NCBI GenBank assembly: GCA_027356795.1
Contig: DAHVXI010000045.1
Coordinates: forward strand, 4,303-68,302
Reading direction: 5' to 3'
DNA: 64,000 nucleotides
Origin: Chloroflexota bacterium
GTDB lineage: Bacteria; Chloroflexota; UBA6077
Part shown: piece after piece, positions 4,600 through 63,980 of the stretch
Layout: every line of letters starts with the position of its first letter
Numbering within the stretch: the stretch's first letter is position 1
Position numbers and translations under genes: made by a program
The notes under the pieces: generated by a model
Databases searched by the model: none
Told to the model about the DNA's origin: nothing
Seen by the model: only the letters and a program-made list of their open reading frames with translations

Positions 4600-5826
4600 C
4601 TGATTCCAGCAGGGCCGAACAACCACAACTGGGGCAACTACGACTTCTCCAGGCGCACCATCGAGATTCTCGACACCTCCCTCCGTGATGGACTGCAGGA
4701 TGCCGAGATCCGCCATCCCACCCTCGACGAGAAGATGCAGCTCCTTCATCGCCTGCTTGACGTAGCCGTCGATGCGGTCGACATCGGAATCCCCGTTGCG
4801 GGGGGGCCCCATCTGAGGGATGCCATCAGACTGGCGAGCGAGCTGCCGGAGGAGGTGCAGGCGGTATGCCTGGCCAGGACCCTCGAGGCGGACGTCAGGG
4901 CGGCGGCGGAAATGGCGCAGCGCAGCGGGAGATCCATCGAGGTTATCCTTTTCGTAGGATCAAGCCCAGTCCGGCGCTGGGTGGAGGGCTGGCACGTCGC
5001 CGACATGATCTCCTGGATGGAGGGGAGCGTCGCCCTCGCCGTCCAGGAGGGGCTGAAACCCACCATCGCCACGGAGCACACCACCGAGACCGAGCCGGAG
5101 GTTATCCGGCAGATATTCCGTGCGGGCCTGGAATGTGGGGGCCAGAGAGTCTGCATCGCCGACACCAGCGGCGCGGCTACCCCGCGCAGTGTGGTCGCAC
5201 TCATCGACTTCTTCGAGGAGAATGTTCTCAACGGGTTTCCCGGCATCCCCATCGACTGGCACGGCCACGACGATCGCGGCCTATCCGTCGTGAACGCTCT
5301 CGCGGCCCTGGAGGCGGGAGCAACGCGGGTTCATGGGACCGTGCTCGGCATAGGGGAGAGGGCGGGGAACACGCCCCTGGAAGCCCTCCTCCTCAACCTC
5401 AAGATCGCTGGCGACCCGAGGCGGCAAGACATCAGCGGGACCACGGCCCTGAGCGAGTGCGGCTCCAGGATGTTCGAGGTGCCTCTCCGGGTGAATTACC
5501 CGGGCATCGGTCAAAAGGTGGGGGTGACGGCTTCCGGCATCCACGCCGCGGCCATGCTCAAGGCAAGACGTCTGGGCGTCGAGGCCGGGTTGCCCTACTC
5601 CGTGGTAGACCAAAGGTGGTTCAACAGGGAGGCCGACGTGAGGATCGGACCGCTGTCCGGTCGGGCAAACGTCGAGTGGGTTGCCCGGAAGCTCGGCATC
5701 CGCTGCTCCGACGAGCTGGTGGAGAAGGCCCTGGCGGCGGCCACGGAGATGAACCGTTTGCTGTCTGAAGAGGATCTAGTCGACATAGCCAACAGCTTGG
5801 AGGGTGGTGGCTATGGCATCTCCTAG
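4600..5826 (+). CDS. Homocitrate/2-isopropylmalate synthase family protein (DRE-TIM metallolyase, no LeuA C-terminal regulatory domain); start codon unresolved
   Basis: The in-frame region upstream of the first ATG (4735) encodes TIEILDTSLRDGLQ, the obligatory N-terminal active-site motif. Later motifs are DTSGAATP and HGHDDRGLSVVNALAALEAGA..VHGTVLGIGERAGNTPLE. The frame has no ATG/GTG/TTG between the stop at 4549 and 4735. Candidate rare starts are CTG 4600 or ATT 4603, after GAAGGCGG. Confidence 0.75.
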   Translation: MIPAGPNNHNWGNYDFSRRTIEILDTSLRDGLQDAEIRHPTLDEKMQLLHRLLDVAVDAVDIGIPVAGGPHLRDAIRLASELPEEVQAVCLARTLEADVRAAAEMAQRSGRSIEVILFVGSSPVRRWVEGWHVADMISWMEGSVALAVQEGLKPTIATEHTTETEPEVIRQIFRAGLECGGQRVCIADTSGAATPRSVVALIDFFEENVLNGFPGIPIDWHGHDDRGLSVVNALAALEAGATRVHGTVLGIGERAGNTPLEALLLNLKIAGDPRRQDISGTTALSECGSRMFEVPLRVNYPGIGQKVGVTASGIHAAAMLKARRLGVEAGLPYSVVDQRWFNREADVRIGPLSGRANVEWVARKLGIRCSDELVEKALAAATEMNRLLSEEDLVDIANSLEGGGYGIS

Positions 5827-6790
5827 CTTCGACCCCAAAGCAGGCAAGAGGGTGGGACACATGAGCGGGAAAGGAACGCGCACCGAGCAGATACCCCTGG
5901 AGGATGGGACACTCAAGGTGGTATCGGTTCTATCCTTCCGGGAGCGTCACCACCTTCCGCAGGTGGTGGACGCGCTGCTGGCCGATGCGCCGGTGGCCTT
6001 TCATGGATGGGGAGTATCGGGCGTTTGTGGCCGGGTCGATGGGGCCAGCTACTTCCAGAAGTTCTGGAGCCTGAAGCAGGGCCGTCCGCCCGGCTCCAAG
6101 ATCCCCCTGCTGGAGCCACCGGAAGAGGTGGTCCGGCACGTGGACTGGCAGAAGGTTCACCCAGCGTACCGCTACCTTCGGGACCCGGCATCTTTGCGAA
6201 GGGTCTGGAAAGGACTTGCCCCTTTCCACCTGATATTCCCCTACAGGGTGGAAGGCGGTACCCTGTCTGAAGCCGTGGTGACGCCGGCCTTCGACCCCGA
6301 CGTTGCCCCGCACACTCCAGTTCCCACGGTTTGCTTCTTCTGGATCGACGACCCAGCCCTGGTTCGGTTGGTGCGGGAGGTGAAGGCGCAGAACCGAGGT
6401 GTGCAGCTTGGCGTCTCTTCCCTAAACGATCCCAAGCAAACGCCACCCTTCAACACCCCGGATCTCCTCGCCTACCTGAAGAGTCGCGGCATCGGCAGGT
6501 ACGACGTCGTCATAGAGGATCCGGTGGTGGAACCCATCGGCATCGCCAGCTCCCATTCGCAGTTCGTGGCTCCGCTGGAAGGAGAGGAGCCGGTGTGGGT
6601 GATGAAGCGGCGAGGCAGCTTCTCCGCACACGGCTTCACGATGCGGACCGGCTTTCCGGTCATCGGGGCTGAGACCGCCAAGGTTGCCGCGAGGCAGGCG
6701 GACCCGGAGCGAGACCTGGATGCCGAGGTGGAGGAGTGTGCGAGGAGGATTCGTCGTTGGCGCCTCAGGGAGACGTTTCACTGGTTCTGA
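5804..6790 (+). CDS. Hypothetical protein with divergent YrdC/Sua5-like (TsaC-fold) signature
   Basis: PVAFHGWGVSGVCG..KFWSLKQGRPPGSKIPLL..HLIFPY aligns with the TsaC motifs (YPTETVYGLG..LKQRP..LIL..FVFPA) but lacks the conserved T-E. The protein is 328 aa, and its start overlaps the 3' end of the upstream synthase by 23 nt. Confidence 0.5.
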   Translation: MVAMASPSFDPKAGKRVGHMSGKGTRTEQIPLEDGTLKVVSVLSFRERHHLPQVVDALLADAPVAFHGWGVSGVCGRVDGASYFQKFWSLKQGRPPGSKIPLLEPPEEVVRHVDWQKVHPAYRYLRDPASLRRVWKGLAPFHLIFPYRVEGGTLSEAVVTPAFDPDVAPHTPVPTVCFFWIDDPALVRLVREVKAQNRGVQLGVSSLNDPKQTPPFNTPDLLAYLKSRGIGRYDVVIEDPVVEPIGIASSHSQFVAPLEGEEPVWVMKRRGSFSAHGFTMRTGFPVIGAETAKVAARQADPERDLDAEVEECARRIRRWRLRETFHWF

Positions 6791-46273: not shown

Positions 46274-47725
46274 CTACTTCGGCGGCTCGAAGTCCCGCAG
46301 GATGTAGCATCGGCTCTTGGTGCTGCCCAGGCTGATCAGGTGGCCCGTCTCCACCAGCTGCGTCAGGTCGCGGCGGGCGGTGCGCACATCGATGCCGGGG
46401 TTCAGCTCCGCGTACTGCTGGGCCGTGATCTCCCCGGTCATTTTCATGTACTCCAGCGCCTTCTTCTGCCGCTCGTTGAGGCGGGTAGGCGGCTGCAGCG
46501 GGGCCTGGGGTTGGGGCGGGACACCCCGCTGCCTGGGCTGCTCGGGAGCCGCTGCCCGTCCGGAGGCGCCGTTCCGCAGGGTGACCACCACGGAGTAACC
46601 CTGCTCACGGAACTGGGGCTCTTCCAGGCCGTAGGAGGACATCTCGTCGATCATCCGGTCGACCCCCTCGCCCAACTCCCGCACGAAGCCGAACTCGGTC
46701 AGCACACGGGCGATGCGTGGGTTGCGGGAGTAGTGGGACTGGCGGAGGTTCGCCAGCCTCACCAGGCCGGGGAGCCGGCCGGGGCTCTCCACCTCCATCC
46801 GGTCGTCGAAGAGCCGCACCTCGATCTGGCTGCCGGAGATGGAGTAGGCACGATGGCAGACGGCGTTCACGATCGCCTCCTGCCAGGCGAAGGGGGGATA
46901 CTCGGGCACCGTCTCGAACAGCCCCTTGGGACCGAGGCGGGTGAAGTCCCGCAGCTGCGCCGAGATGCTCCGCTGGGCCTCCACGATCAGGGTGGGCAGC
47001 GGCAGCTCCAGGATGACGTCCTTCACCAGGTTCATCCGGGGACCGGTCTCGGTGGAGGTACCCTCGTAGCGCAGGATCCGCAGGCCCGGCCTCGGGAGGA
47101 AGGTGGAGGGGTCCTCGGCGAAGAGCAGGATTCCGGCGCAGTTCACCCTGAGCTCTCCATCCTGCCGCCTCGCCAGCCCTCGAGCCAGCAGCAGCTCTGC
47201 CGGCTCCAGGCTGGTCTCCAACCGACCGGCGTACTCCCTCAGCAGACCCGGCTCCAGATCCTCCAGGGTCGCCTGCCCTACCTCCGTCAGCTCGTAGGAA
47301 GCCTCGCCCCGGTCGTAGACCAGCTGTAGCCGCTCCTCGAAGTCCAGCTTCCGGGTGCGGTCGCCCTCCCGCAGGTACACCTCGTCCTTGCTGTTGGAGT
47401 GGATCTTCTCGCCGGGCTGGATCTCCACCGCCAGGACCCTGTCCTCCAGCCCTCGGCGGTTGGTGCAGGGGAGCCAGAAGGGCTGCACCCGCACCGGCGG
47501 CCGGCAGAAGGCCAGGGCCGCGGGGAGAAGGGAATCCACCTTGCCCTCGTACTGGAGGAAGCCCTCCACTGCCCCCTCCTCCACCCCCAGCAGCAGGGTG
47601 CCCCCGTCGGCGTTGGCGAAGCCAATCAGCAGGTTGGCCAGGTCGCGAGGACTGAGACGGGCGCTCTTGCGGGCCAGCAGCTGGCCCTCTGGTAGCTTCA
47701 GCAGCTCCTGGAGATCTCTGCGCAT
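46274..47725 (-). CDS. AlbA_2 (Schlafen-like, 'divergent AAA') + HATPase_c_4 putative transcriptional regulator (RecG C-terminal-like family)
   Basis: LLLGVEEGAV..EV is the AlbA_2 region. The central region is NAVCHRAY. The C-terminal HTH-like reads LNERQKKALEYMK.TGEITAQQYAEL. The start is taken at internal Met (MRRDLQELL). The ORF extends to 47842. Confidence 0.6.
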   Translation of the reverse strand: MRRDLQELLKLPEGQLLARKSARLSPRDLANLLIGFANADGGTLLLGVEEGAVEGFLQYEGKVDSLLPAALAFCRPPVRVQPFWLPCTNRRGLEDRVLAVEIQPGEKIHSNSKDEVYLREGDRTRKLDFEERLQLVYDRGEASYELTEVGQATLEDLEPGLLREYAGRLETSLEPAELLLARGLARRQDGELRVNCAGILLFAEDPSTFLPRPGLRILRYEGTSTETGPRMNLVKDVILELPLPTLIVEAQRSISAQLRDFTRLGPKGLFETVPEYPPFAWQEAIVNAVCHRAYSISGSQIEVRLFDDRMEVESPGRLPGLVRLANLRQSHYSRNPRIARVLTEFGFVRELGEGVDRMIDEMSSYGLEEPQFREQGYSVVVTLRNGASGRAAAPEQPRQRGVPPQPQAPLQPPTRLNERQKKALEYMKMTGEITAQQYAELNPGIDVRTARRDLTQLVETGHLISLGSTKSRCYILRDFEPPK

Positions 47726-48004
47726 CGTCCTTCTCGGTTGGAGGGGATGGGGGTTAGTGAGCCCGGCGCGGGTAGCCCACGGATTGTAGCACCCACCGTG
47801 CAAGTTGAGTAGGGCGGGGTCTCGTGCCGGCCCCGACCGCACAACCGCCGGCCCTATCGTAGGGACTGGCGGCGAGGTATACTAGTGCCCAGGCAGTTGA
47901 GAAGGTGATCCGGCGAGCCAGACCTCGCTCTTCGAGACATCCTTCTTTCGATCTTGCTCTCCAGCTTCTTTGAGGGCGAAGACGCCCTGGTGGGAGGTTT
48001 GCTT

Positions 48005-54936: not shown

Positions 54937-55413
54937 GTGGCGACTACGCTTTCGCAACAGATCATAGAGACTCTTGACCAGGCGGAGCAGCTCTACAATC
55001 GCCTGGTTCTGGTGGTAGGACCTCCTGGCACCGGGAAGACGGCCGCCCTGAGGCAAGTATCCAAGAGTAAGGGGCTCCCCTTGGTGAACGTCAATCTGGA
55101 GCTGAGCCAGAGACTGCTGGAGTTGACGGAGAAGCAGCGGGCTCTGCGATGCGGACAGATCGTGCGAGAGATCGTCGACCAGGCGGGTGGTTCCGCCGTC
55201 TTGCTGGACAATCTGGAGGTGGTCTTCGATCCCGCGCTGCGGCAAGATCCTCTTCGGCTGCTCCAAGGACTCTCCCGCAATCGGACAATCGTTGCCAGCT
55301 GGAACGGACAGGTCGCGGATGGCTACCTTGTTTACGCCGAGCCCGGCCACCTTGAGTACGGGCGATATCCGATCTCGGGCCTCTTGATGGTGGCAGCGTC
55401 AACGGTCGAGTGA
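54937..55413 (+). CDS. brxF: Small P-loop ATPase, BrxF-like (BREX type 3 first gene)
   Basis: Walker [13 protein letters not shown] and Walker B AVLLDNLE. 158 aa with a GTG start. It sits immediately upstream of the BrxC-like giant ATPase. Confidence 0.5.
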
Positions 55414-55447: not shown

Positions 55448-58400
55448 ATGAAGTACCGCGAGCTGATCCAGTTCCATCCCATCACGGCCAATATCGAGCT
55501 TCGTGACGCCGATCAGGAGGATCGCGCCCGGCAACTGGTGTCGACCTACGTCGTCTCGCAAGAGATGGCCGACCGGCTGATTCACGTTGCCTTCAACCAG
55601 CTCCAGTACGACACGCCCGCCGACAACAAGGGGCTTCTGGTGGTCGGCAACTACGGCACAGGCAAGTCTCACCTGATGTCGGTAGTCTCGGCTGTGGCCG
55701 AGCGCGCCGACCTGGCAGCCGATCTCCAGAATAAGAGAGTCGCTGACGCCGCGGCGAAGATCGCCGGGAAGTTCAAGGTGATTCGGACGGAGATCGGGGC
55801 CACCACGATGCCACTCCGCGAGATAGTGGTGGGTGAGCTGGAGGATCGGCTGGCGGACATGGGAGTCCACTACAGCTTTCCTGCCATCGATCAGGTCCAC
55901 ACAAACAAGCCTGCCTTCGAGGCCATGATGGCCGCCTTCCACCAGGTGTATCCGGACCATGGTCTTCTGATGGTGGTGGATGAGCTGCTGGACTACCTGC
56001 GCGAGCGGAAGGACCAGGAGTTGATCCTCGATCTGACTCTACTGCGAGAGATCGGAGAGGTGTGCGGGGACATCCGGTTCCGCTTCGTGGCCGGCGTGCA
56101 GGAGGCGATCTTCGACAGCCCGCAGTTTGCCTTCGCCGCCGACACCCTGAGAAGGGTGAGAGACCGGTTCGAGCAGATCCACATCGCCCGGCGGGACGTG
56201 AAGTACGTGGTGGCGGAGAGGCTGCTGAAGAAGACGACGGATCAGCAGGTGAAGATCCGCGAGCACCTCGCACCCTTCGCCCGCTTCTACGGCGACATGA
56301 ACGCCAAGATGGACGAGTTCGTTCGTCTCTTCCCGGTGCATCCCGACTACATAGACGTGTTCGAGCGCATCACCCTGGCCGAGAAGCGGGAGGTGCTTCG
56401 CACCATCTCTCGATCGATGGACCGGCTGCTGGACGAGGATGTTCCCCAGGATAGCTCCGGTCTCGTCGGCTTCGATAGCTACTGGGAAGTGATCAAGGAC
56501 AACCCTGTGGTGCGGGCGATACCGGACGTACGGCTCGTGACGGACTGCAGCGCCAAGCTGGAGGACCTGGTGAACGTCGGCTATCCGAAGGGCAAGAGCA
56601 AAGAGATGGCCCGAAGGATCATTCGTGGTCTGAGCGTCTACCGGCTGGCGGTAGGGAGCGTCGATTCGCCGGTTGGGCTGAGCGCCGAGCAACTCCGAGA
56701 CGTGTTGTGCCTGTACGATCCTCTCGTCGGAGAGCTGGGGGGCGATGCCGCCGAGGACCTGCGCGGAGAGATCGAGACAGCTCTACGGCTGATCAGCACC
56801 ACGGTGAGCGGCCAGTTCATTTCCGCGACGGAGCGGGATGAGAAGGGACGGCTGGGCGGCCAGTTCTACCTGGACGTCTACAAGACCCAGGACTACGATG
56901 CGGACATAGACAAAGAAGCAGAGGTTCTCGGGAAGAACACCCTGGACAGGTACTACTACCAGGCTCTTCGTCGCGCCATGGAGTGTTCCGATCAGACCTA
57001 CGTGTCTGGCTTCAACATATGGGAGCACGAGTTGGAGTGGCGCGAGAAGAAGGCGATGAGGCAGGGGTACCTGTTCTTCGGAGCGCCCAACGAGAGGTCG
57101 ACGGTTGCACCGCCCAGGGACTTCTACGTGTACTTCCTCCAGCCCCACGATCCGCCGGTGTACAGGGACGAGAAGAAGGCAGACGAGCTGTTCTTCAGAC
57201 TGGCCGGCGCCGACGATCTGTTCAGAGCGACGCTGAAGAGGTACGGAGCGGCGCTGGAGTTGGCGAACAGGGAGTCCGCGGGCCTGGCGAAGTCCGCGTA
57301 CACGTCGAAGGCCGACGCCCACCTGCAGTCGCTGGTCAAGTGGCTCCAGAAGCAGATGGCCACTGCTTACCAGGCAACCCACCAGGGGCGGGTCCGCCCT
57401 CTGATGGAGTGGCTGAAGGACGCGGCGGTGTCCGGGCAGGCGCACTCCCAGGCAGCCGGCGGCAACGTGCGAGACACGGTGAACGCGGTTGCGTCCGAGT
57501 GCCTGGCCCCGCACTTCCAGGAGCAGGCGTCGGAGTATCCCACCTTCTCGATCCTGGTCACCGTGAAGAGTCGGGGACAGGCGGCACAGGATGCTCTGCG
57601 CTACGTGGCGGGGGGAGCACGGACCAAGACGGCCGCGGCTGTGTTGGACGCTTTGGAGCTGCTGGACGGAGAGAGAGTAACTGCCAACGCTTCCAGGTAT
57701 GCCGGTTACGTTCGGGGGCTGCTTCAGAAGAAGGGGCAGGGGCAGGTGCTGAACCGGGGAGAGCTGATCCAGAACGTCTCCGGCGTAGAGTTCATGGCGC
57801 CGGAGAGCTACAGGCTCGAGCCCGAGTGGGTGGTAGTGGTGCTGGCAACACTGGTGCATGCCGGAGAGCTGGTGCTGGCGATACCCGGGAAGAAGTTCGA
57901 GGCCGGCGATCTGGGGATGCTGGCGGCGACGCCGCTCCAGGATCTCGTCGGTTTCAAGCACGTCGAGGCGCCGAAGGAGCCGAACCTCCCCGCGCTGAAG
58001 GCACTGTTCGAGCTGCTGGGGCTCGGCCCGGGCAGGGCAATCCAGGTGACCCAAGGGGACGAGAATGCGGTTCAAGATCTTCGACAACAGGCGGCAGAGA
58101 GAGTAGGAAGGCTGGTTATGGCTCGCCAGCATCTCCAGGGTGGGCTGCCGTTCTGGGGAAGGACGCTGCTAAGCGAGCAGGAGCAGGCAGACTATGGGAG
58201 CCGTCTGGAGGGGACAAAGGCGTTTCTGGAGTCGCTCCAGGCTTACTCGACGCCCGGGAAGCTGAAGAACTTCAACCAGACAGTCGAGCAGGTGAACAGC
58301 CACAAGGCCGGGCTGCAAACGTTGCGGGAGGTGGAGGAACTGCACGGGCTGGTAAACGACCTGGCGTCCGCGGCCTCCTATCTGTCTTCCGCCGAGCTGA

Positions 58401-59191
58401 CGCTGCCCACCGAGCACTCATGGGTTGCGAAGGTCAGGCCGGCCAGGGAAGAGGTTGTGGCCCGCGTTTTGGACCCCGGCAAGAGGGCTGCGGATGGATT
58501 CCGGCAGGCAGTGCTCCTGGACCTCGCCGGCCTGAAGAAGGAGTACGTGGACATCTACATGCCGGCGCACTCCAGGGCGCGGCTGGGAGCGAAGGAAGAC
58601 CAGAAGAGGGCGGCCCTGCTCCATGACGACCGTCTGGAGCAGCTGAGGAAGCTGGCGACGATAGACCTGATGCCGGTGCAGCATCTGACCGACTACCAGA
58701 ACCGGCTGGCAGAATTGCCGTCCTGCTTCGCGCTGACACCGAGAGAACTCGAAAGCTCTCCTGTATGCCACTGCGGGTTCAAGCCGAATCTGGAGCCGGC
58801 AGCCGCGTCGGCAGCTGCTCAGCTGGCTGCCCTGGACGGCGAGTTGGACACGCTCCATGCGAACTGGACGCAGACCCTGGTGGCGAACCTGGAAGACCCG
58901 ACGGTGCAGGGGAATCTAGCGCTGCTGAAGCCGGACCAGAAGAAGCTGATAGATGCGTTTCTGGCCAGTCGCAAGCTGCCGGACGCATTGGATCAGCAGT
59001 TCCTACAGGCGGTTCGCGAGGCGCTGTCGGGGCTGGTCAAGGTGGCGGTAAAGGTGGAGACGCTTAGGGATGCGTTGATCGCGGGCGGATCGCCAGCGAC
59101 GCTGGCGGAGATGAGGCAGCGATACGAGGGGTTCCTGGCAGAACTGGTCAAGGGAAAGGACACAGCCAAGGTCCGGCTGGTAGTGGAGTAA
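55448..59191 (+). CDS. brxC: BrxC/PglY-like large ATPase (1247 aa)
   Basis: N-terminal Walker [13 protein letters not shown] and Walker [12 protein letters not shown]. The size and the neighbouring small ATPase and PF01555-type MTase fit BREX type 3. The assignment comes from motifs and architecture, not from a search. Confidence 0.6.
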
Positions 59192-59220
59192 CGGTGCCCG
59201 GCTGGCTCGGGAGCTGCAAT

Positions 59221-59250
59221 AGCTTTCAGTTATGAGCTATAATCTGAAAG
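59221..59250. repeat. Hairpin of REP family B type (tagctttcag ... ctgaaag) after brxC stop
   Basis: tagctttcagttatgagctataatctgaaag read directly. Confidence 0.5.
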
Positions 59251-59293
59251 GCAACTCCCGGGAGATGTCCCGGCTATCGGGGAGAGGACGACA

Positions 59294-59701
59294 ATGAAGG
59301 CGGGCGTGAGTGCTTCCCTCTTGGACGAACTGGAGGAGCTGAAGCGCGAGATGGAGTCCCAGGGCCGCGCGTCAAAGGCCAGAGCCCTCCGGGAGGCTCT
59401 CGTGGCGCTGGCCAGGCCTGCTCGGGGCTGGATCACCACCGGGCAGGCAGCAGAGCAGCTCGGCATAACGATACCAACCGTCAAGGCCTGGATCCTTCGC
59501 GGTGCTCTGGTCGGCCGGCAGGTAGGGGATCGCTGGTGGGTGTCGCGGGAGAGCGTGGACGAGGTGCTGAGCTTCGGCAGCGGCGTCGTCCAGTTGGAGC
59601 AGGAGGGCTCTTCGACCGAGGAAGAGGCCAGCGAGATGACCAGGGAGGCCCGCCGCCAGATGGGGGCGGAGAAGAGGGCAGCCGGTGGGCGCCAGCGGTA
59701 G
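59294..59701 (+). CDS. Excisionase/MerR-type HTH DNA-binding protein (putative antitoxin)
   Basis: WITTGQAAEQLGITIPTVKAWILRGALVGRQVGDRWWVSRESV matches the excisionase-family HTH. GGAGAGGA precedes the ATG. Confidence 0.6.
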   Translation: MKAGVSASLLDELEELKREMESQGRASKARALREALVALARPARGWITTGQAAEQLGITIPTVKAWILRGALVGRQVGDRWWVSRESVDEVLSFGSGVVQLEQEGSSTEEEASEMTREARRQMGAEKRAAGGRQR

Positions 59702-59741
59702 CGAGAAAGGGAACATTCTACCTGCTTCATTGCTGTCCCTG

Positions 59742-60308
59742 ATGGTCCTGGACCGGGTGACGTTGGACACCGGCATTCTGGTGGGCCCCAGGAGTCCGGA
59801 GTTCGCCATTGCCGCCCGCCTCGGGTACTATCGGGGGCATTGGAGCAACTGGATCGTAGCGGAGTTCAGCCGGGTCAGGACCGAGATGATCCTTCGGCGA
59901 GCCAGGCGGGAGCTGGGAATCACGCGGGAGAACGAGGAGGATGGGGCGATCCAGGAGGAGCTGGAGCAACGGCTGCTCAGGTCCAGGGCCAGGGTGAACG
60001 CCGCCATCGACGACTTCAGCAGGGTGCTGGTCAGCGTGGATTACCAGGAGGCGGAAGAGGCCGACCTCGCCTGGCTGAAGGACGAGGACGACCACCCGAT
60101 CATGCAAACGGCGATAGCCGCCGGGGTACCCGGCGTCCTGGTGACGGACAACTGGCGGGACTTCCCAATAGGCGAGGCTCGCAACGGGATCCTGATCGTG
60201 TCGGGCAGGATGTTCCTGGACTACCTGTATCAGACCTATCCCGAAGCCGAGGCGGTGATCACGAGGTACGCCGAGCGCCGCCGCCAGGCCATCAGCGAGG
60301 GAAAGTAG
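59742..60308 (+). CDS. PIN-domain protein (putative toxin)
   Basis: MVLDRVTLDTGILVG carries the first acidic residue; ..DDHPIMQTAIAAGVPGVLVTDNWRDF is the PIN core. It lies 40 nt after the HTH gene. An alternative start at 59685 overlaps by 17 nt. Confidence 0.55.
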   Translation: MVLDRVTLDTGILVGPRSPEFAIAARLGYYRGHWSNWIVAEFSRVRTEMILRRARRELGITRENEEDGAIQEELEQRLLRSRARVNAAIDDFSRVLVSVDYQEAEEADLAWLKDEDDHPIMQTAIAAGVPGVLVTDNWRDFPIGEARNGILIVSGRMFLDYLYQTYPEAEAVITRYAERRRQAISEGK

Positions 60309-60451
60309 CCAAGACACGGGTGCTGAGTATCCTCGCACATCTCCGGATGGCAGCGCGAACGGAAATGCGGGGTCGCATAGCTGTGCTCTATTGCCCCCGC
60401 TCGATGCTCGTTTCAATGCCTATCGTAGATCCAGCCGTGCGAGGGGGAGAC

Positions 60452-63346
60452 ATGGCCAAGAGACGTGAGTCGCAACAGGTGGGCCCGAGGCTGTTCCGCA
60501 CGAGCGATCAGTTGAATTTCGCGGACGAGCCTTCGCTAGAAGAGCAGGTCGGGGAAGATGCCGGTGGAAACGATGGCTCGGGGCAAGGGGCGCCACGCAG
60601 GGTGCGATCCGTCGAGTGCCTCGGGATGACCTTCGAGAGCGAGGAGGCAAGGCGAGACTACTTCACCGAGAGGCTGCGGGAGAAGCTGAAGGATCCCGAG
60701 TTTCGGAAGATTGAGGGCTTCCCCGTCAGTTCGGACGATGACATCCTGGCCCTGTCCGATCCACCCTACTACACTGCGTGCCCCAACCCATTCATCGCGG
60801 ATTTCCTATGCCACTACGGCAAACCCTACGAGCCGAGCGAATCGTACAACCGGGAACCGTTTGCGGCGGATGTCAGTGAAGGAAAGCAGGACCCGATATG
60901 CATGGCCCATACTTACCACACGAAGGTGCCATACCGTGCTATCATGCGGTATATCCTTCACTACACTAGCCCCGGTGATGTGGTCCTCGACTCATTCGCT
61001 GGCACAGGCATGACAGGATTGGCGGCACAGCTCTGCGCCAACCCCCAGCCGGATTTCCGAGATGCAGTCGAGGCCGAATGGACCAGCGCGGGTCAAACGC
61101 TGCCGAAATGGGGGCGGCGCGTTGCAGTCTTGTATGACCTGTCCCCATTCGCCACCTTTCTCGCTCGCAACTTCAACTCTGACTTAGACGCCAACACATT
61201 CGCCAAAGAAGCGACAGCTCTACTAGGTGATTCAGAGCGTGCACTTGGCTGGATGTACGAGACTGATCTACATGGATCGAAGACGAAGGGGCAGCTGCAG
61301 TATGTCATTTGGACGGAGTCGCTCTACTGCGAATGCGGTCATGAACTGCTGTTCTGGCATCCCAAGGACCCGAGTGGCCAGCTACCCGAGCCTGAGCACT
61401 CATTCCGGTGCCCCAATTGTGACGCGGAAGTTAGCAAACGCAGTGCTAGCCGAGCCACCTCGACTGTAGCCGACTCTCTTCTCGGAACCACGATTCGACA
61501 GAACAGGCGTCTGCCTGTTCTTGTCGAGGCCAAGTTCGGCGACGCGCTTGTGAAGAAGTCACCAACGCGATTCGACCTCGAACTTATGCAGAGAATTGAA
61601 CAGCAGGGACACACCCATTACGTCCCAACGCAACCCATGATGTTCGACGGGACGGCGTGGGGAGATATGTTCCGAGCAGGCTATCACTTCGGGATCACTC
61701 ACGTTCACCACTTCTGGACGAAGCGAAACCTTCTCGTCCTTTCGGATCTCATGGAGCGAGCAAGGAAGTCCAGCGTACCACTTGAAATGCTCTTTCTCTG
61801 CACCTCGTTCGCAGTTAAGACAGGCAGCCGGATGCACAACGTCGGTTTCAGTAGTGGGAAGCTGAACCTAGCCGGCCAAATCTACAACACCCTCCAGTTG
61901 ACCAGCATCAGCGCTGAGCGCAACCTGTATGTGCTTGGGAGGGGCAAAGTCGAGGACATCAGGAGCGTCTTCGACGTAAGAAAACTTCGAGGCTCGACGG
62001 CAATCTCGACCAGCTCGGCAACACAGCTCGCAGGCGTCCCAGACAACATGGTTGACTATGTATTCGTTGATCCGCCCTTCGGTGACAACATCATGTACTC
62101 CGAACTTAGTTTCCTCTACGAGGCTTGGTTGCGGGTATTCACGAACCAGAGAACCGAAGCAATCATGTCGGCCACACAGGAAAAGTCCCTGCATGAGTAT
62201 CAGATTCTCATGCTTCGAGCCTTCAGGGAACTCAATCGCGTCCTAAAGCCGGGTCGTTGGATTACGGTCGCTTTCCACAACAGCAAGAATGCCGTTTGGA
62301 ATGCGATACAAGAGGCTTTGTGGCATGCAGGCTTCGTGGTCGCTGACGTTCGCACACTTGACAAGGGGCAAGGGACGTACAAGCAGATGACCACGGCTGG
62401 GGCCGTCAAGCAAGACTTAGTCATTTCCGCCTACAAACCCAGTGGCGGCCTTGAGGGGCGCTTCAGGCTCACGGCCGGTACCGAAGAAGGCGTGTGGGAC
62501 TTCGTCCGCAATCACCTGGGGCAACTTCCGGTCTTCGTTCCCGTCGACGGCCATGCCGAGGTGGTGGCGGAGAGAGCCGGCTACCTGCTGTTCGACCGGA
62601 TGGTCGCGTTCCACGTCCAAAGAGGTGTGCTGGTGCCGATGTCGGCCGCGGAGTTCTACGCCGGGCTGAAGGAGAGGTTTCCCGCGCGGGACGGCATGTA
62701 CTTCCTGCCCGATCAGGTGGTCGAATACGACCGGAAGCGGCAGGGTGTCAAGGAAGTCTTTCAGCTGCAACTCGTCCCCACCGACGAGGCGACGGCTATC
62801 CAGTGGCTCCGCCAGCAGCTGGAGAGGAAGCCCCAGACGTTCCAGGAGATACATCCAGAGTTCATCCGAGCCATTGCCGGCTGGGAGCGGCACGAGCAGC
62901 CGTTGGAGCTGCGCGAGATGCTGGCCCACAACTTCCTCCGCTACGAAGGCTCCGGTGCGATCCCCGAGCCGATTTGGGCATGGATGCAGAAGAGCGCGAC
63001 CTTGCGCGAGCTGATGAAGGGACAGGACAGGGAGAGCCCGAGCGCTGCTTTGAGGGAAGAGGCGAAGGACAGGTGGTACATGCCCGATCCGAGCAGGGCA
63101 CAGGACCTGGAGAGGCTGAGGGAGAAGGCTCTTCTGAAGGAGTTCGAGGAGTACAGGGCCTTCAAGGGCAGGCAGATGAAGGTGCTCAGGCTGGAGGCGG
63201 TGCGAACCGGCTTCAAGAAGGCGTGGCAGGAGAGGGACTACCAGACGATCATCGACGTGGCCGGCAAAATACCCGAAGAGGTGTTGCAGGAGGACCCTAA
63301 GCTCCTGATGTGGTACGACCAGGCACTGACCAGGAGCGGCGCGTAG
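60452..63346 (+). CDS. pglXI: N6-adenine/N4-cytosine DNA methyltransferase, PglXI-like (PF01555-type motifs), ~964 aa
   Basis: Motif I VLDSFAGTGMTGLAA (~aa 170), motif IV DYVFVDPPFG (~aa 545), and an additional N-terminal LSDPPYY (~aa 100). The start at ATG 60452 follows GAGGGGGAG. The ORF-track start at 59840 overlaps the PIN gene. Confidence 0.75.
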   Translation: MAKRRESQQVGPRLFRTSDQLNFADEPSLEEQVGEDAGGNDGSGQGAPRRVRSVECLGMTFESEEARRDYFTERLREKLKDPEFRKIEGFPVSSDDDILALSDPPYYTACPNPFIADFLCHYGKPYEPSESYNREPFAADVSEGKQDPICMAHTYHTKVPYRAIMRYILHYTSPGDVVLDSFAGTGMTGLAAQLCANPQPDFRDAVEAEWTSAGQTLPKWGRRVAVLYDLSPFATFLARNFNSDLDANTFAKEATALLGDSERALGWMYETDLHGSKTKGQLQYVIWTESLYCECGHELLFWHPKDPSGQLPEPEHSFRCPNCDAEVSKRSASRATSTVADSLLGTTIRQNRRLPVLVEAKFGDALVKKSPTRFDLELMQRIEQQGHTHYVPTQPMMFDGTAWGDMFRAGYHFGITHVHHFWTKRNLLVLSDLMERARKSSVPLEMLFLCTSFAVKTGSRMHNVGFSSGKLNLAGQIYNTLQLTSISAERNLYVLGRGKVEDIRSVFDVRKLRGSTAISTSSATQLAGVPDNMVDYVFVDPPFGDNIMYSELSFLYEAWLRVFTNQRTEAIMSATQEKSLHEYQILMLRAFRELNRVLKPGRWITVAFHNSKNAVWNAIQEALWHAGFVVADVRTLDKGQGTYKQMTTAGAVKQDLVISAYKPSGGLEGRFRLTAGTEEGVWDFVRNHLGQLPVFVPVDGHAEVVAERAGYLLFDRMVAFHVQRGVLVPMSAAEFYAGLKERFPARDGMYFLPDQVVEYDRKRQGVKEVFQLQLVPTDEATAIQWLRQQLERKPQTFQEIHPEFIRAIAGWERHEQPLELREMLAHNFLRYEGSGAIPEPIWAWMQKSATLRELMKGQDRESPSAALREEAKDRWYMPDPSRAQDLERLREKALLKEFEEYRAFKGRQMKVLRLEAVRTGFKKAWQERDYQTIIDVAGKIPEEVLQEDPKLLMWYDQALTRSGA

Positions 63347-63356
63347 GGGTAGGGGA

Positions 63357-63980
63357 GTGACCGAGTCCGTGCATCAAGATATGAACCATGTGTTCACCAT
63401 CGGACACTCGAACCACCCCCTCGATACGTTCATTGGCCTTCTGAAGCAGCACGGCATCGAAGTGTTGGTCGACGTGAGATCCCAGCCGCACTCGCGGTAT
63501 AGCCCGCAGTTTGATGCGCCGGAGCTGAAGATCTCGCTGCCTGAAGCCGGGATCAGCTACCTGTTCCTGGGCCGGGAGCTGGGTGGAAGGCCCGAGGGCG
63601 AGCAGTTCTACGACGATGATGGCTACGTGCTGTACTCTCGCATTGCCGAGACGCCACTGTTCCACGAGGGGATCGCGCGGCTCGAGCGAGGCGTGGAGCA
63701 GTACCGGGTGGCGGTCATGTGCAGCGAGGAGAACCCGACAGGGTGCCACCGGCGGCTGCTCATCGGCCGTGTACTTGGCGGGAAGAGCGTGGAAGTCATC
63801 CACATTCGTGGCGACGGGAGGCTACAGCCCGAAGATGAGCTGAAAGCGGAGGAGCGAGCGAGCTCGGCGGAGGCAACCCAGCTTCGACTATTTGGCTCTG
63901 CGCCGTCGGAGGAGAAGCCATGGAGATCTACACGATCGGTTTCACCCAGAGAACCGCAGCGTCCTTCTTCGGAGCCCTAA
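63357..63980 (+). CDS. DUF488-family protein
   Basis: VFTIGHSNHPLDTFIGLLKQHGIEVLVDVRSQPHSRYSPQF..EAGISYLFLGRELGG is the DUF488 signature. It has a low-complexity C-terminal tail. Confidence 0.65.
   Translation: MTESVHQDMNHVFTIGHSNHPLDTFIGLLKQHGIEVLVDVRSQPHSRYSPQFDAPELKISLPEAGISYLFLGRELGGRPEGEQFYDDDGYVLYSRIAETPLFHEGIARLERGVEQYRVAVMCSEENPTGCHRRLLIGRVLGGKSVEVIHIRGDGRLQPEDELKAEERASSAEATQLRLFGSAPSEEKPWRSTRSVSPREPQRPSSEP

Follow-up and report, generated by a model that had tools for sequence, protein, structure and literature searches.

A toxin-antitoxin-like HTH-PIN gene pair as a probable passenger in the variable brxC-pglXI slot of a Chloroflexota BREX-3 locus

Results

The final 9 kb of a 64,000-nucleotide stretch of DNA from a Chloroflexota bacterium (contig DAHVXI010000045.1, positions 4,303 to 68,302 of the forward strand; the whole stretch is called the window below) hold a type 3 bacteriophage exclusion (BREX-3) locus on the plus strand. 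Between its brxC (55448-59191) and pglXI (60452-63346) genes lies a pair of small genes, the first for a helix-turn-helix (HTH) protein and the second for a PIN-type nuclease. The pair is probably an autonomous type II toxin-antitoxin (TA)-like cassette of the 'MerR-PIN' class, carried as a passenger in a variable slot of the BREX-3 locus. It is not a BREX component. The two genes are co-oriented, with the antitoxin-like gene first and a short spacer or overlap between them, and the order is the same in every homologous locus. The pair travels as one unit between unrelated contexts and is inherited as such, and its first protein joins a truncated MerR-like HTH to a conserved small extra N-terminal segment. 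These features fit a type II TA module; we only infer toxicity, neutralisation, an RNA substrate, autoregulation and a defence role.

The antitoxin-like HTH protein

The HTH gene (59294-59701, plus strand) starts with ATG, is preceded by a Shine-Dalgarno-like GGGAGAGG at 59280-59287, and encodes an antitoxin-like protein of 135 residues. The protein scored above the cut-offs of both Pfam HTH_17 (E 2.1e-7, 31.6 bits, cut-off 27 bits) and the NCBIfam model TIGR01764 'excise' (E 2.4e-7). In it, an N-terminal part of about 45 residues precedes a truncated MerR/excisionase-type HTH (residues 46-92), and about 40 residues form a charged tail at the C-terminus. There are 121 homologs of equal length, nearly all from Chloroflexota, and ratios of nonsynonymous to synonymous substitution rates (dN/dS) of 0.12-0.37 indicate purifying selection on the gene. 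A ribbon-helix-helix (RHH) fold of the first 45 residues was suspected from the sequence pattern; profile and PDB searches did not support it, and it was dropped. The protein also matched the PADLOC model mad1 (E 8e-9) over the HTH region only. Membership in MADS, a methylation-based defence system, was rejected, as the mad1 match reflects a generic HTH, and mad2 and mad8 gave generic matches of marginal strength (about 1e-3) to PglXI and BrxF.

The nearest solved relative of the HTH protein is the mycobacteriophage Xis protein Gp37 (4j2n, E 1.2e-4), and its best family match, TIGR01764, is the 'excisionase family'. The protein could then be a true excisionase, i.e. a recombination directionality factor, and the segment the remnant of an integrative element, which would also fit the duplicated brxC 3' end found beside the cassette in locus L095 (see below). 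We regard this as very improbable. The HTH gene is always coupled to a PIN gene and its product has extra N- and C-terminal segments. No integrase or recombinase was present in the gene tables of nine contexts; the DDE_Tnp_1 transposase-family and AbiEii genes of locus L011 are near the pair but not adjacent to it. Insertion scars, which the initial annotation had named as the mark of a random insertion, were sought as flanking direct repeats in the window, and only short ones at chance level were found. Homologous recombination between BREX-3 loci is the better explanation for the duplicated brxC end.

The toxin-like PIN protein

The toxin-like gene ends at 60308 on the plus strand and has alternative starts. 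With ATG at 59742 it encodes 188 residues and is separated from the HTH gene by a 40-nt spacer; with GTG at 59685 it encodes 207 residues and overlaps the HTH gene by 17 nt. The 40-nt gap reported in the initial annotation is thus correct for the ATG start and disappears with the GTG start. Both start calls are present in public assemblies, and the 19-residue N-terminal extension of the GTG form is poorly conserved. The family has few members: 20 were retrieved from 5.8 billion proteins by a word-indexed search, and an exhaustive search of 1.84 billion representatives with a profile of 18 close homologs gave 212 proteins. For further analysis, the window protein, four close homologs and 51 full-length matches from the profile search were combined in a 56-sequence alignment. 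PIN_3 (PF13470) was matched by 48 of the 56 aligned relatives at E <= 0.001, with a best value of 4.4e-15.

The predicted active site (188-residue numbering) consists of D9, E41, D114/D117 and D136. D9, E41, D114 and D117 are conserved in at least 90% of the 56 sequences, and all 18 close homologs have D136, which is part of a T-D motif. With respect to the predicted strands, these acidic residues fit the canonical PIN positions (after strand 1, where the helix that follows strand 2 begins, ahead of the helix that follows strand 3, and after strand 4). Their absence had been put forward in the initial annotation as grounds for abandoning the PIN assignment; they are present and conserved. An AlphaFold (AF2) model from the 56-sequence alignment had a predicted local distance difference test score (pLDDT) of 96.9 and a predicted template modelling score (pTM) of 0.90; a model from only the 18 close homologs was unusable (pLDDT 53). 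The model has the PIN-like order of strands and helices, with a long helical hairpin of about 45 residues inserted after the second strand, and its best PDB matches are PIN domains. Sequence-profile matches of the protein in the PDB (phycocyanin and a herpesvirus tegument protein) were spurious. The gene is under purifying selection (dN/dS 0.16-0.34). On the basis of the alignment and the model, we accept the second gene as one for a divergent PIN_3-like nuclease whose predicted active site is intact.

The family is divergent, small and restricted to Chloroflexota, carries a long helical insert and falls below curated PIN cut-offs, and PIN domains also have non-toxin roles (PMC5499597). These points would suit a pair that is not a TA module, in which a regulator is merely co-transcribed with a non-toxic housekeeping or repair nuclease. 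Such an arrangement seems improbable to us, because the gene order, the gene sizes, the overlap or short spacer, the pair's own putative promoter with palindromes and its patchy, mobile spread among other TA pairs all fit a type II TA module, and the architecture is that of the predicted PIN-MerR TA class (PMC2701414). In addition, locus L095 contains a toxin-deleted remnant with a kept antitoxin gene, and L124 a truncated PIN gene beside an intact HTH gene.

A putative promoter that travels with the pair

A putative cassette promoter with operator-like palindromes (59214-59250, plus strand) was read directly from the sequence. It has a -35-like CTGCAA (59214-59219; a TTGCA-like hexamer), an 18-nt spacer and a -10 TATAAT (59238-59243). 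Nested inverted repeats surround the -10 element: ATAGCT (59219-59224) with AGCTAT (59235-59240), and CTTTCAG (59223-59229) with CTGAAAG (59244-59250). In eight loci whose flanks are unrelated, the 100 nt 5' of the HTH gene are conserved and share the motif TGCAnTnnCTTTCAsTnnTnnnnTATAAT, which occurs once in the window, with 0 occurrences expected by chance. It is because of this cross-locus conservation, and not of a promoter scan, that we call a promoter here; its promoter and operator functions are presumed. A second operator upstream of pglXI (60376-60394, pairing with 59216-59234) was considered and rejected: the two segments are 74% complementary, they are one of 31 such pairs, and the match is not conserved in L095 or L096. 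An Rfam scan of 58900-60700 gave nothing meaningful.

Occurrence of the pair outside BREX

Homologous HTH-PIN pairs were found in more than 25 loci. Because they recur with dN/dS values of 0.12-0.37, the HTH and PIN genes are real genes and not chance open reading frames of a GC-rich genome. In the first six contexts (PIN homologs 51-100% identical) the HTH gene lies directly upstream of the PIN gene in every case, and five of the six have no nearby BREX genes. A metagenome scan added 20 loci, and the HTH gene precedes the PIN gene in all 17 that include upstream DNA. Among these metagenome loci BrxC/PglXI were found in only one, which is the same contig as L095, and in none of six others with flanks of 5-12 kb. 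A 45%-identical HTH homolog also directly precedes a PIN_3 gene, in a housekeeping context. The identities of the HTH and PIN proteins co-vary across loci (r = 0.99).

The pair occurs in more than 10 distinct neighbourhoods, and most of its copies are outside BREX (L001, L003-5, L009, L011, L099-104, L108, L111, L115, L118, L120, L124). The neighbours there include ParA/Wzz, a sensor kinase, MZB/amidohydrolase, UbiB, CoA-transferase and AbiEii/transposase genes, and other TA pairs are often close. In L011 (7810-8420) the PIN gene is split by a frameshift, and the called product is without the first two acidic residues. In L124 (5571-6165) the intact HTH gene is followed by only a PIN fragment. 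Either toxin decay or assembly errors may account for these two cases.

The brxC-pglXI junction is a recurrent cargo slot

L012 and L013 are the two closest BrxC relatives of the window locus, and neither has the HTH-PIN pair. The DNA homology of the window to both ends at the brxC stop codon (59190-59192), which is the left edge of the variable slot. With L013, a BREX-3 locus, homology sets in again at 60423, 29 nt short of pglXI, the right edge of the slot. Homology to L006 extends from inside brxC to 60313, 5 nt past the PIN stop codon. In place of the pair, L012 (BrxC 89% identical) has a 570-residue Schlafen/AlbA_2 + HATPase_c_4 gene, and L013 (BrxC 85% identical) an 83-residue gene and a PemK/MazF toxin (5954-6535).

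Of the more than 576 DUF6079 loci in the genome scan, we surveyed 80. These BREX-3 loci (BrxC 51-61% identical) come from species-representative genomes, and 69 of the 80 hold both brxC and pglXI. Searches by tblastn (E 1e-5) with the HTH and PIN proteins gave no match in the 80 surveyed loci or in L012 and L013. brxC and pglXI are adjacent in 18 of the 69 loci, and the other 51 have an insert of 0.4-6.3 kb, which was typed by clustering and Pfam scans. Schlafen/HATPase genes occupy the slot in about 30 loci. Further cargo includes DUF1016/YhcG nucleases, '23S rRNA intervening sequence' proteins, an Rv0623-like antitoxin (L054), Fic with an OLD-family nuclease (L041), UvrD, type IIG methyltransferases, ABC-ATPase modules, a metallophosphatase with an SMC-like ATPase, and several DUFs. 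The slot of L017, a Candidatus Brocadia metagenome-assembled genome, holds a 67-residue gene and a classical VapC-type PIN gene (PF01850; 14161-14773). Because the inserts vary among the surveyed loci, the brxC-pglXI junction recurrently serves as a slot for cargo that turns over fast, and the window pair is one of its many alternative occupants.

The pair does not behave as part of the BREX-3 core set, as it is neither present in most BREX-3 loci nor confined to BREX. The initial annotation had placed it outside the canonical BREX architecture, in agreement with its presence in 0 of the 69 other BREX-3 loci, and had left open whether it is a BREX-linked module or an independent insertion. The evidence favours an insertion, given the non-BREX copies with the same promoter and the absence from these 69 loci and from the two closest BrxC relatives. 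The insertion is not random, since the junction is a recurrent cargo slot in which the pair persists in a small Chloroflexota clade.

History of the pair in the BREX-3 slot

Only the closest clade of the pair (PIN at least 79% identical; Chloroflexota) is found downstream of brxC, in three intact BREX-3 loci and one decayed locus. Compared with the window, L095 has a BrxC 82%, an HTH protein 91%, a PIN 85% and a PglXI only 43% identical. In L096-98 these values are 76% (BrxC C-terminus), 85%, 79% and 57-64%. In both cases the pair lies between brxC and pglXI. The position of the pair, whose conservation in related BREX-3 loci the initial annotation had raised, is thus conserved in the closest Chloroflexota clade (L095, L096-98) and not in the 69 loci of other lineages. 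In L096 a Phd/YefM antitoxin gene and a ParE toxin gene (5083-5725) lie just downstream of pglXI, so that TA-type cargo occurs in both junctions.

In L006 (8949-10624; HTH 86%, PIN 81% identical) an intact pair directly follows a frameshifted remnant of the BrxC C-terminus. Only fragments with BrxC residues 875-910 and 1074-1247 are left, with no pglXI or other BREX gene. The pair itself is under purifying selection (dN/dS 0.20 and 0.25). It has outlived BREX in this locus, as an addictive or independently useful module would.

Locus L095 (1090-2120) has a tandem arrangement. brxC is followed by a second promoter-like motif, a 44%-identical HTH gene, a PIN remnant, a duplicate of the brxC end and the window-type cassette. 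The PIN remnant retains the first 25 or so and the last 20 or so codons only, as a result of an internal deletion. Retention of an antitoxin beside a gutted toxin is the usual decay route of TA modules. The duplicate consists of the last 50 codons of brxC and is located between the remnant and the window-type promoter, HTH and PIN genes, which points to homologous recombination between BREX-3 loci as the way in which cassettes enter.

These arrangements could be taken further. The junction might be a dedicated cassette-exchange site that works by homologous recombination, with the conserved brxC 3' and pglXI 5' ends as arms. The autoregulated promoter of a TA passenger would drive the methylase, helicase and PglZ genes, its toxin would penalise loss of the locus, and both expression and stability of BREX-3 would depend on the passenger. 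The duplicated brxC codons of L095 would then be the scar of a swap and the L006 pair, having outlived BREX, a selfish end-point. We consider this extension doubtful.

Is the pair a BREX accessory?

Several observations weigh against the reading of the pair as an autonomous TA-like passenger. The window PIN protein alone is below the cut-offs of Pfam PF13470 PIN_3 (E 0.0038, 18.5 against 27 bits) and NCBIfam NF046100 (RSP_2648 PIN; E 7.6e-9, 35.7 against 170 bits). The profile searches suggested by the initial annotation therefore agreed with it for HTH_17, above its cut-off, and not for the direct PF13470 match. The PIN identity holds despite the sub-threshold score, because the relatives match PIN_3, the acidic residues are conserved and the model matches PIN domains. 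A simple sigma-70 scan called no consensus promoter at the putative promoter, whose -35 element is weak. No terminator-like hairpin was found between the PIN gene and pglXI in a terminator scan of the plus strand, so the cassette may influence BREX expression. Lastly, the pair of the closest clade always adjoins brxC (window, L095, L096-98, L006), and a functional tie to BREX in that lineage is possible.

The main rival reading is that the pair is a dedicated BREX-3 accessory. Its HTH protein might regulate pglXI, brxHII, pglZ and brxA, like BrxR of type 1 BREX or mad1 of MADS, or its PIN protein might be a BREX-coupled, suicidal backup RNase that is released on BREX inhibition. The cassette promoter lies upstream of pglXI without an intervening terminator-like hairpin, the HTH protein matches mad1, the small HTH protein of MADS, and all four closest-clade contexts are downstream of brxC although their PglXI proteins are only 43-64% identical. 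BREX-embedded PIN, HEPN and Schlafen RNases have also been proposed as backup effectors (PMC12839542). However, the same pair and promoter occur in many non-BREX neighbourhoods, and none of the 69 other BREX-3 loci has the pair, nor does either of the two closest BrxC relatives. The L006 pair was kept under purifying selection after BREX was lost, the mad1 match spans only the generic HTH, and the repeat near pglXI that resembles an operator (60376-60394) is weak and lacks conservation. We therefore think a dedicated BREX-3 accessory unlikely and favour an autonomous TA-like passenger.

The host BREX-3 locus and its surroundings

The first gene of the operon is brxF (54937-55413, plus strand), which codes for the BREX-3 P-loop protein (NCBIfam NF033453 BREX_3_BrxF, E 1.3e-56; PADLOC BrxF, E 2.3e-62). 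It is followed on the same strand by brxC, for a DUF6079-type BrxC/PglY ATPase (Pfam DUF6079, 1604 bits; PADLOC BrxC, 1756 bits), and, after the slot, by pglXI, for the BREX-3 adenine methyltransferase (PADLOC PglXI, 1264.8 bits; Pfam N6_N4_Mtase, E 2.6e-15). These matches agree with the initial annotation, in which the pair was placed on the same strand between brxC-like and pglXI-like genes. In a public contig identical to the window (L007, from a Chloroflexota metagenome-assembled genome), pglXI is followed by three small genes and then by the genes for BrxHII, PglZ and BrxA. The BREX-3 system is complete, since this identical contig supplies BrxHII, PglZ and BrxA.

The spacer from the PIN stop codon to the pglXI start (60309-60451, plus strand) showed no conservation in an alignment of the window, L095 and L096. 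The likely start of pglXI is the ATG at 60452, which has a ribosome-binding site GGGGGAG. Upstream of this start the pglXI frame is open for about 600 nt more (59840-63346) and overlaps the PIN gene, which is read in a different frame; this extension is an artefact that stems from the high GC content. Among BREX-3 loci, PglXI is least conserved over roughly its first 50 residues.

A second cassette is embedded between pglXI and brxHII (L007 9107-10825). It codes for two DUF488 proteins and a DuOB protein that together correspond to the PADLOC candidate system PDC-M45. Its first gene, for a DUF488 protein, is at 63357-63980 on the plus strand (PDC-M45B, E 2.8e-58), and the window ends before the rest, which follows in L007 in the order PDC-M45C (E 3.7e-67) and PDC-M45A (DuOB; E 8.2e-42). 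Because this cassette is also embedded, passengers are present in two different junctions of one BREX-3 locus. About 7 kb upstream of the BREX locus, the window codes for a 522-residue Schlafen/AlbA_2 + HATPase_c_4 + HTH protein (46274-47842, minus strand). Members of the same family occupy the brxC-pglXI slot of about 30 of the 69 other BREX-3 loci.

Discussion

The initial annotation described an Xis/MerR-type HTH protein followed by a PIN-domain protein, and both identities stand, the first through HTH_17 and TIGR01764 matches above cut-off and the second through relatives, acidic residues and the model. Its suggestion of a TA-like nature is supported at the sequence level by the pairing, the promoter, the mobility and the decay patterns. 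In the mechanism that we propose, the cassette's own promoter would give rise to a bicistronic message. The HTH protein is predicted to bind the promoter palindromes, which would lead to autorepression, and to neutralise the PIN protein by direct binding. The PIN_3-like protein would be a metal-dependent endonuclease that, by analogy with VapC, most likely cleaves RNA. Loss of the antitoxin supply would free the nuclease. In the BREX slot, the cassette probably stabilises the locus by addiction, and it may be a backup abortive-infection effector if infection or a shut-off of host expression depletes the antitoxin.

If this is true, the pair is one more case of 'defence inside defence', a TA cassette at a junction that elsewhere holds Schlafen/HATPase genes, MazF/VapC pairs, OLD and Fic. 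The accepted view of how BREX works is not changed. The content of the slot turns over among loci with BrxC proteins 85-89% identical, which helps the mining of embedded genes for new defence systems, and the decay in L006 and the tandem in L095 are natural examples of gain, replacement and retention of passengers. As a compact candidate PIN-MerR pair, the cassette is suited to toxicity and abortive-infection assays.

Comparison with known systems

A PIN-MerR class of TA systems was predicted by Makarova, Wolf and Koonin in 2009, with an antitoxin made of a truncated MerR-like HTH and a small N-terminal domain (PMC2701414). The pair shares with this class the truncated MerR-like HTH with a small extra N-terminal domain, the PIN toxin, the antitoxin-first order and the mobile distribution. 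It differs in that its PIN protein belongs to a small branch specific to Chloroflexota, with an inserted helical hairpin of about 45 residues, and in that its antitoxin adds a charged C-terminal tail of about 40 residues. In the literature we found no experimentally tested member of this computationally predicted class and no characterised HTH_17/excisionase-PIN_3 pair. PIN_3 proteins are typically TA toxins (PMC5499597). Compared with VapBC/PIN_3 (PF13470/COG1569) TA systems, such as the PIN_3-RHH_6 modules of Tn3-family transposons (PMC7157771; PMC5499597), the pair has in common the PIN fold with four acidic metal-binding residues, an upstream small DNA-binding partner and the state of a passenger inside another genetic unit. 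Its antitoxin, however, has a MerR/Xis-type HTH and not an RHH, AbrB or Phd domain, and the direct Pfam score of its PIN protein is below the gathering cut-off.

Payne et al. (bioRxiv 10.1101/2024.01.29.577857) have described genes that are embedded in BREX, DISARM, type I restriction-modification (RM) and Hma systems. According to a survey from 2026, the auxiliary or backup effectors in BREX loci include RNases of the PIN, HEPN and Schlafen types as well as OLD nucleases, with PIN 'less commonly observed' (PMC12839542). The novelty implied by the initial annotation is therefore lower than it seemed, as accessory and backup nucleases in BREX, PIN proteins among them, are already on record in these two papers. 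Like the described cases, the pair is a same-strand nuclease cassette between core BREX genes, in a locus that also has the catalogued PDC-M45, and the cargo of the junction (Schlafen/HATPase, OLD, Fic and PD-(D/E)XK nucleases) matches the described repertoire. Unlike them, this HTH-PIN family is without a PADLOC model, and it is a two-gene TA-type module with its own promoter and not an ATPase-coupled effector.

For some embedded systems a link to the host system is known, e.g. PrrC in the EcoprrI type I RM system, BrxU in the pEFER BREX system and PARIS in BREX (cited in 10.1101/2024.01.29.577857; PMC12839542). What the pair shares with them is its place within an operon for methylation-based defence, together with the notion of a backup defence that is set off once the primary one is inhibited. 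Their functional link has been demonstrated, whereas the HTH-PIN pair is known here from sequence and is BREX-independent in most genomes. The pair thus represents a previously uncatalogued HTH-PIN family in an already described type of position, and not a new kind of system.

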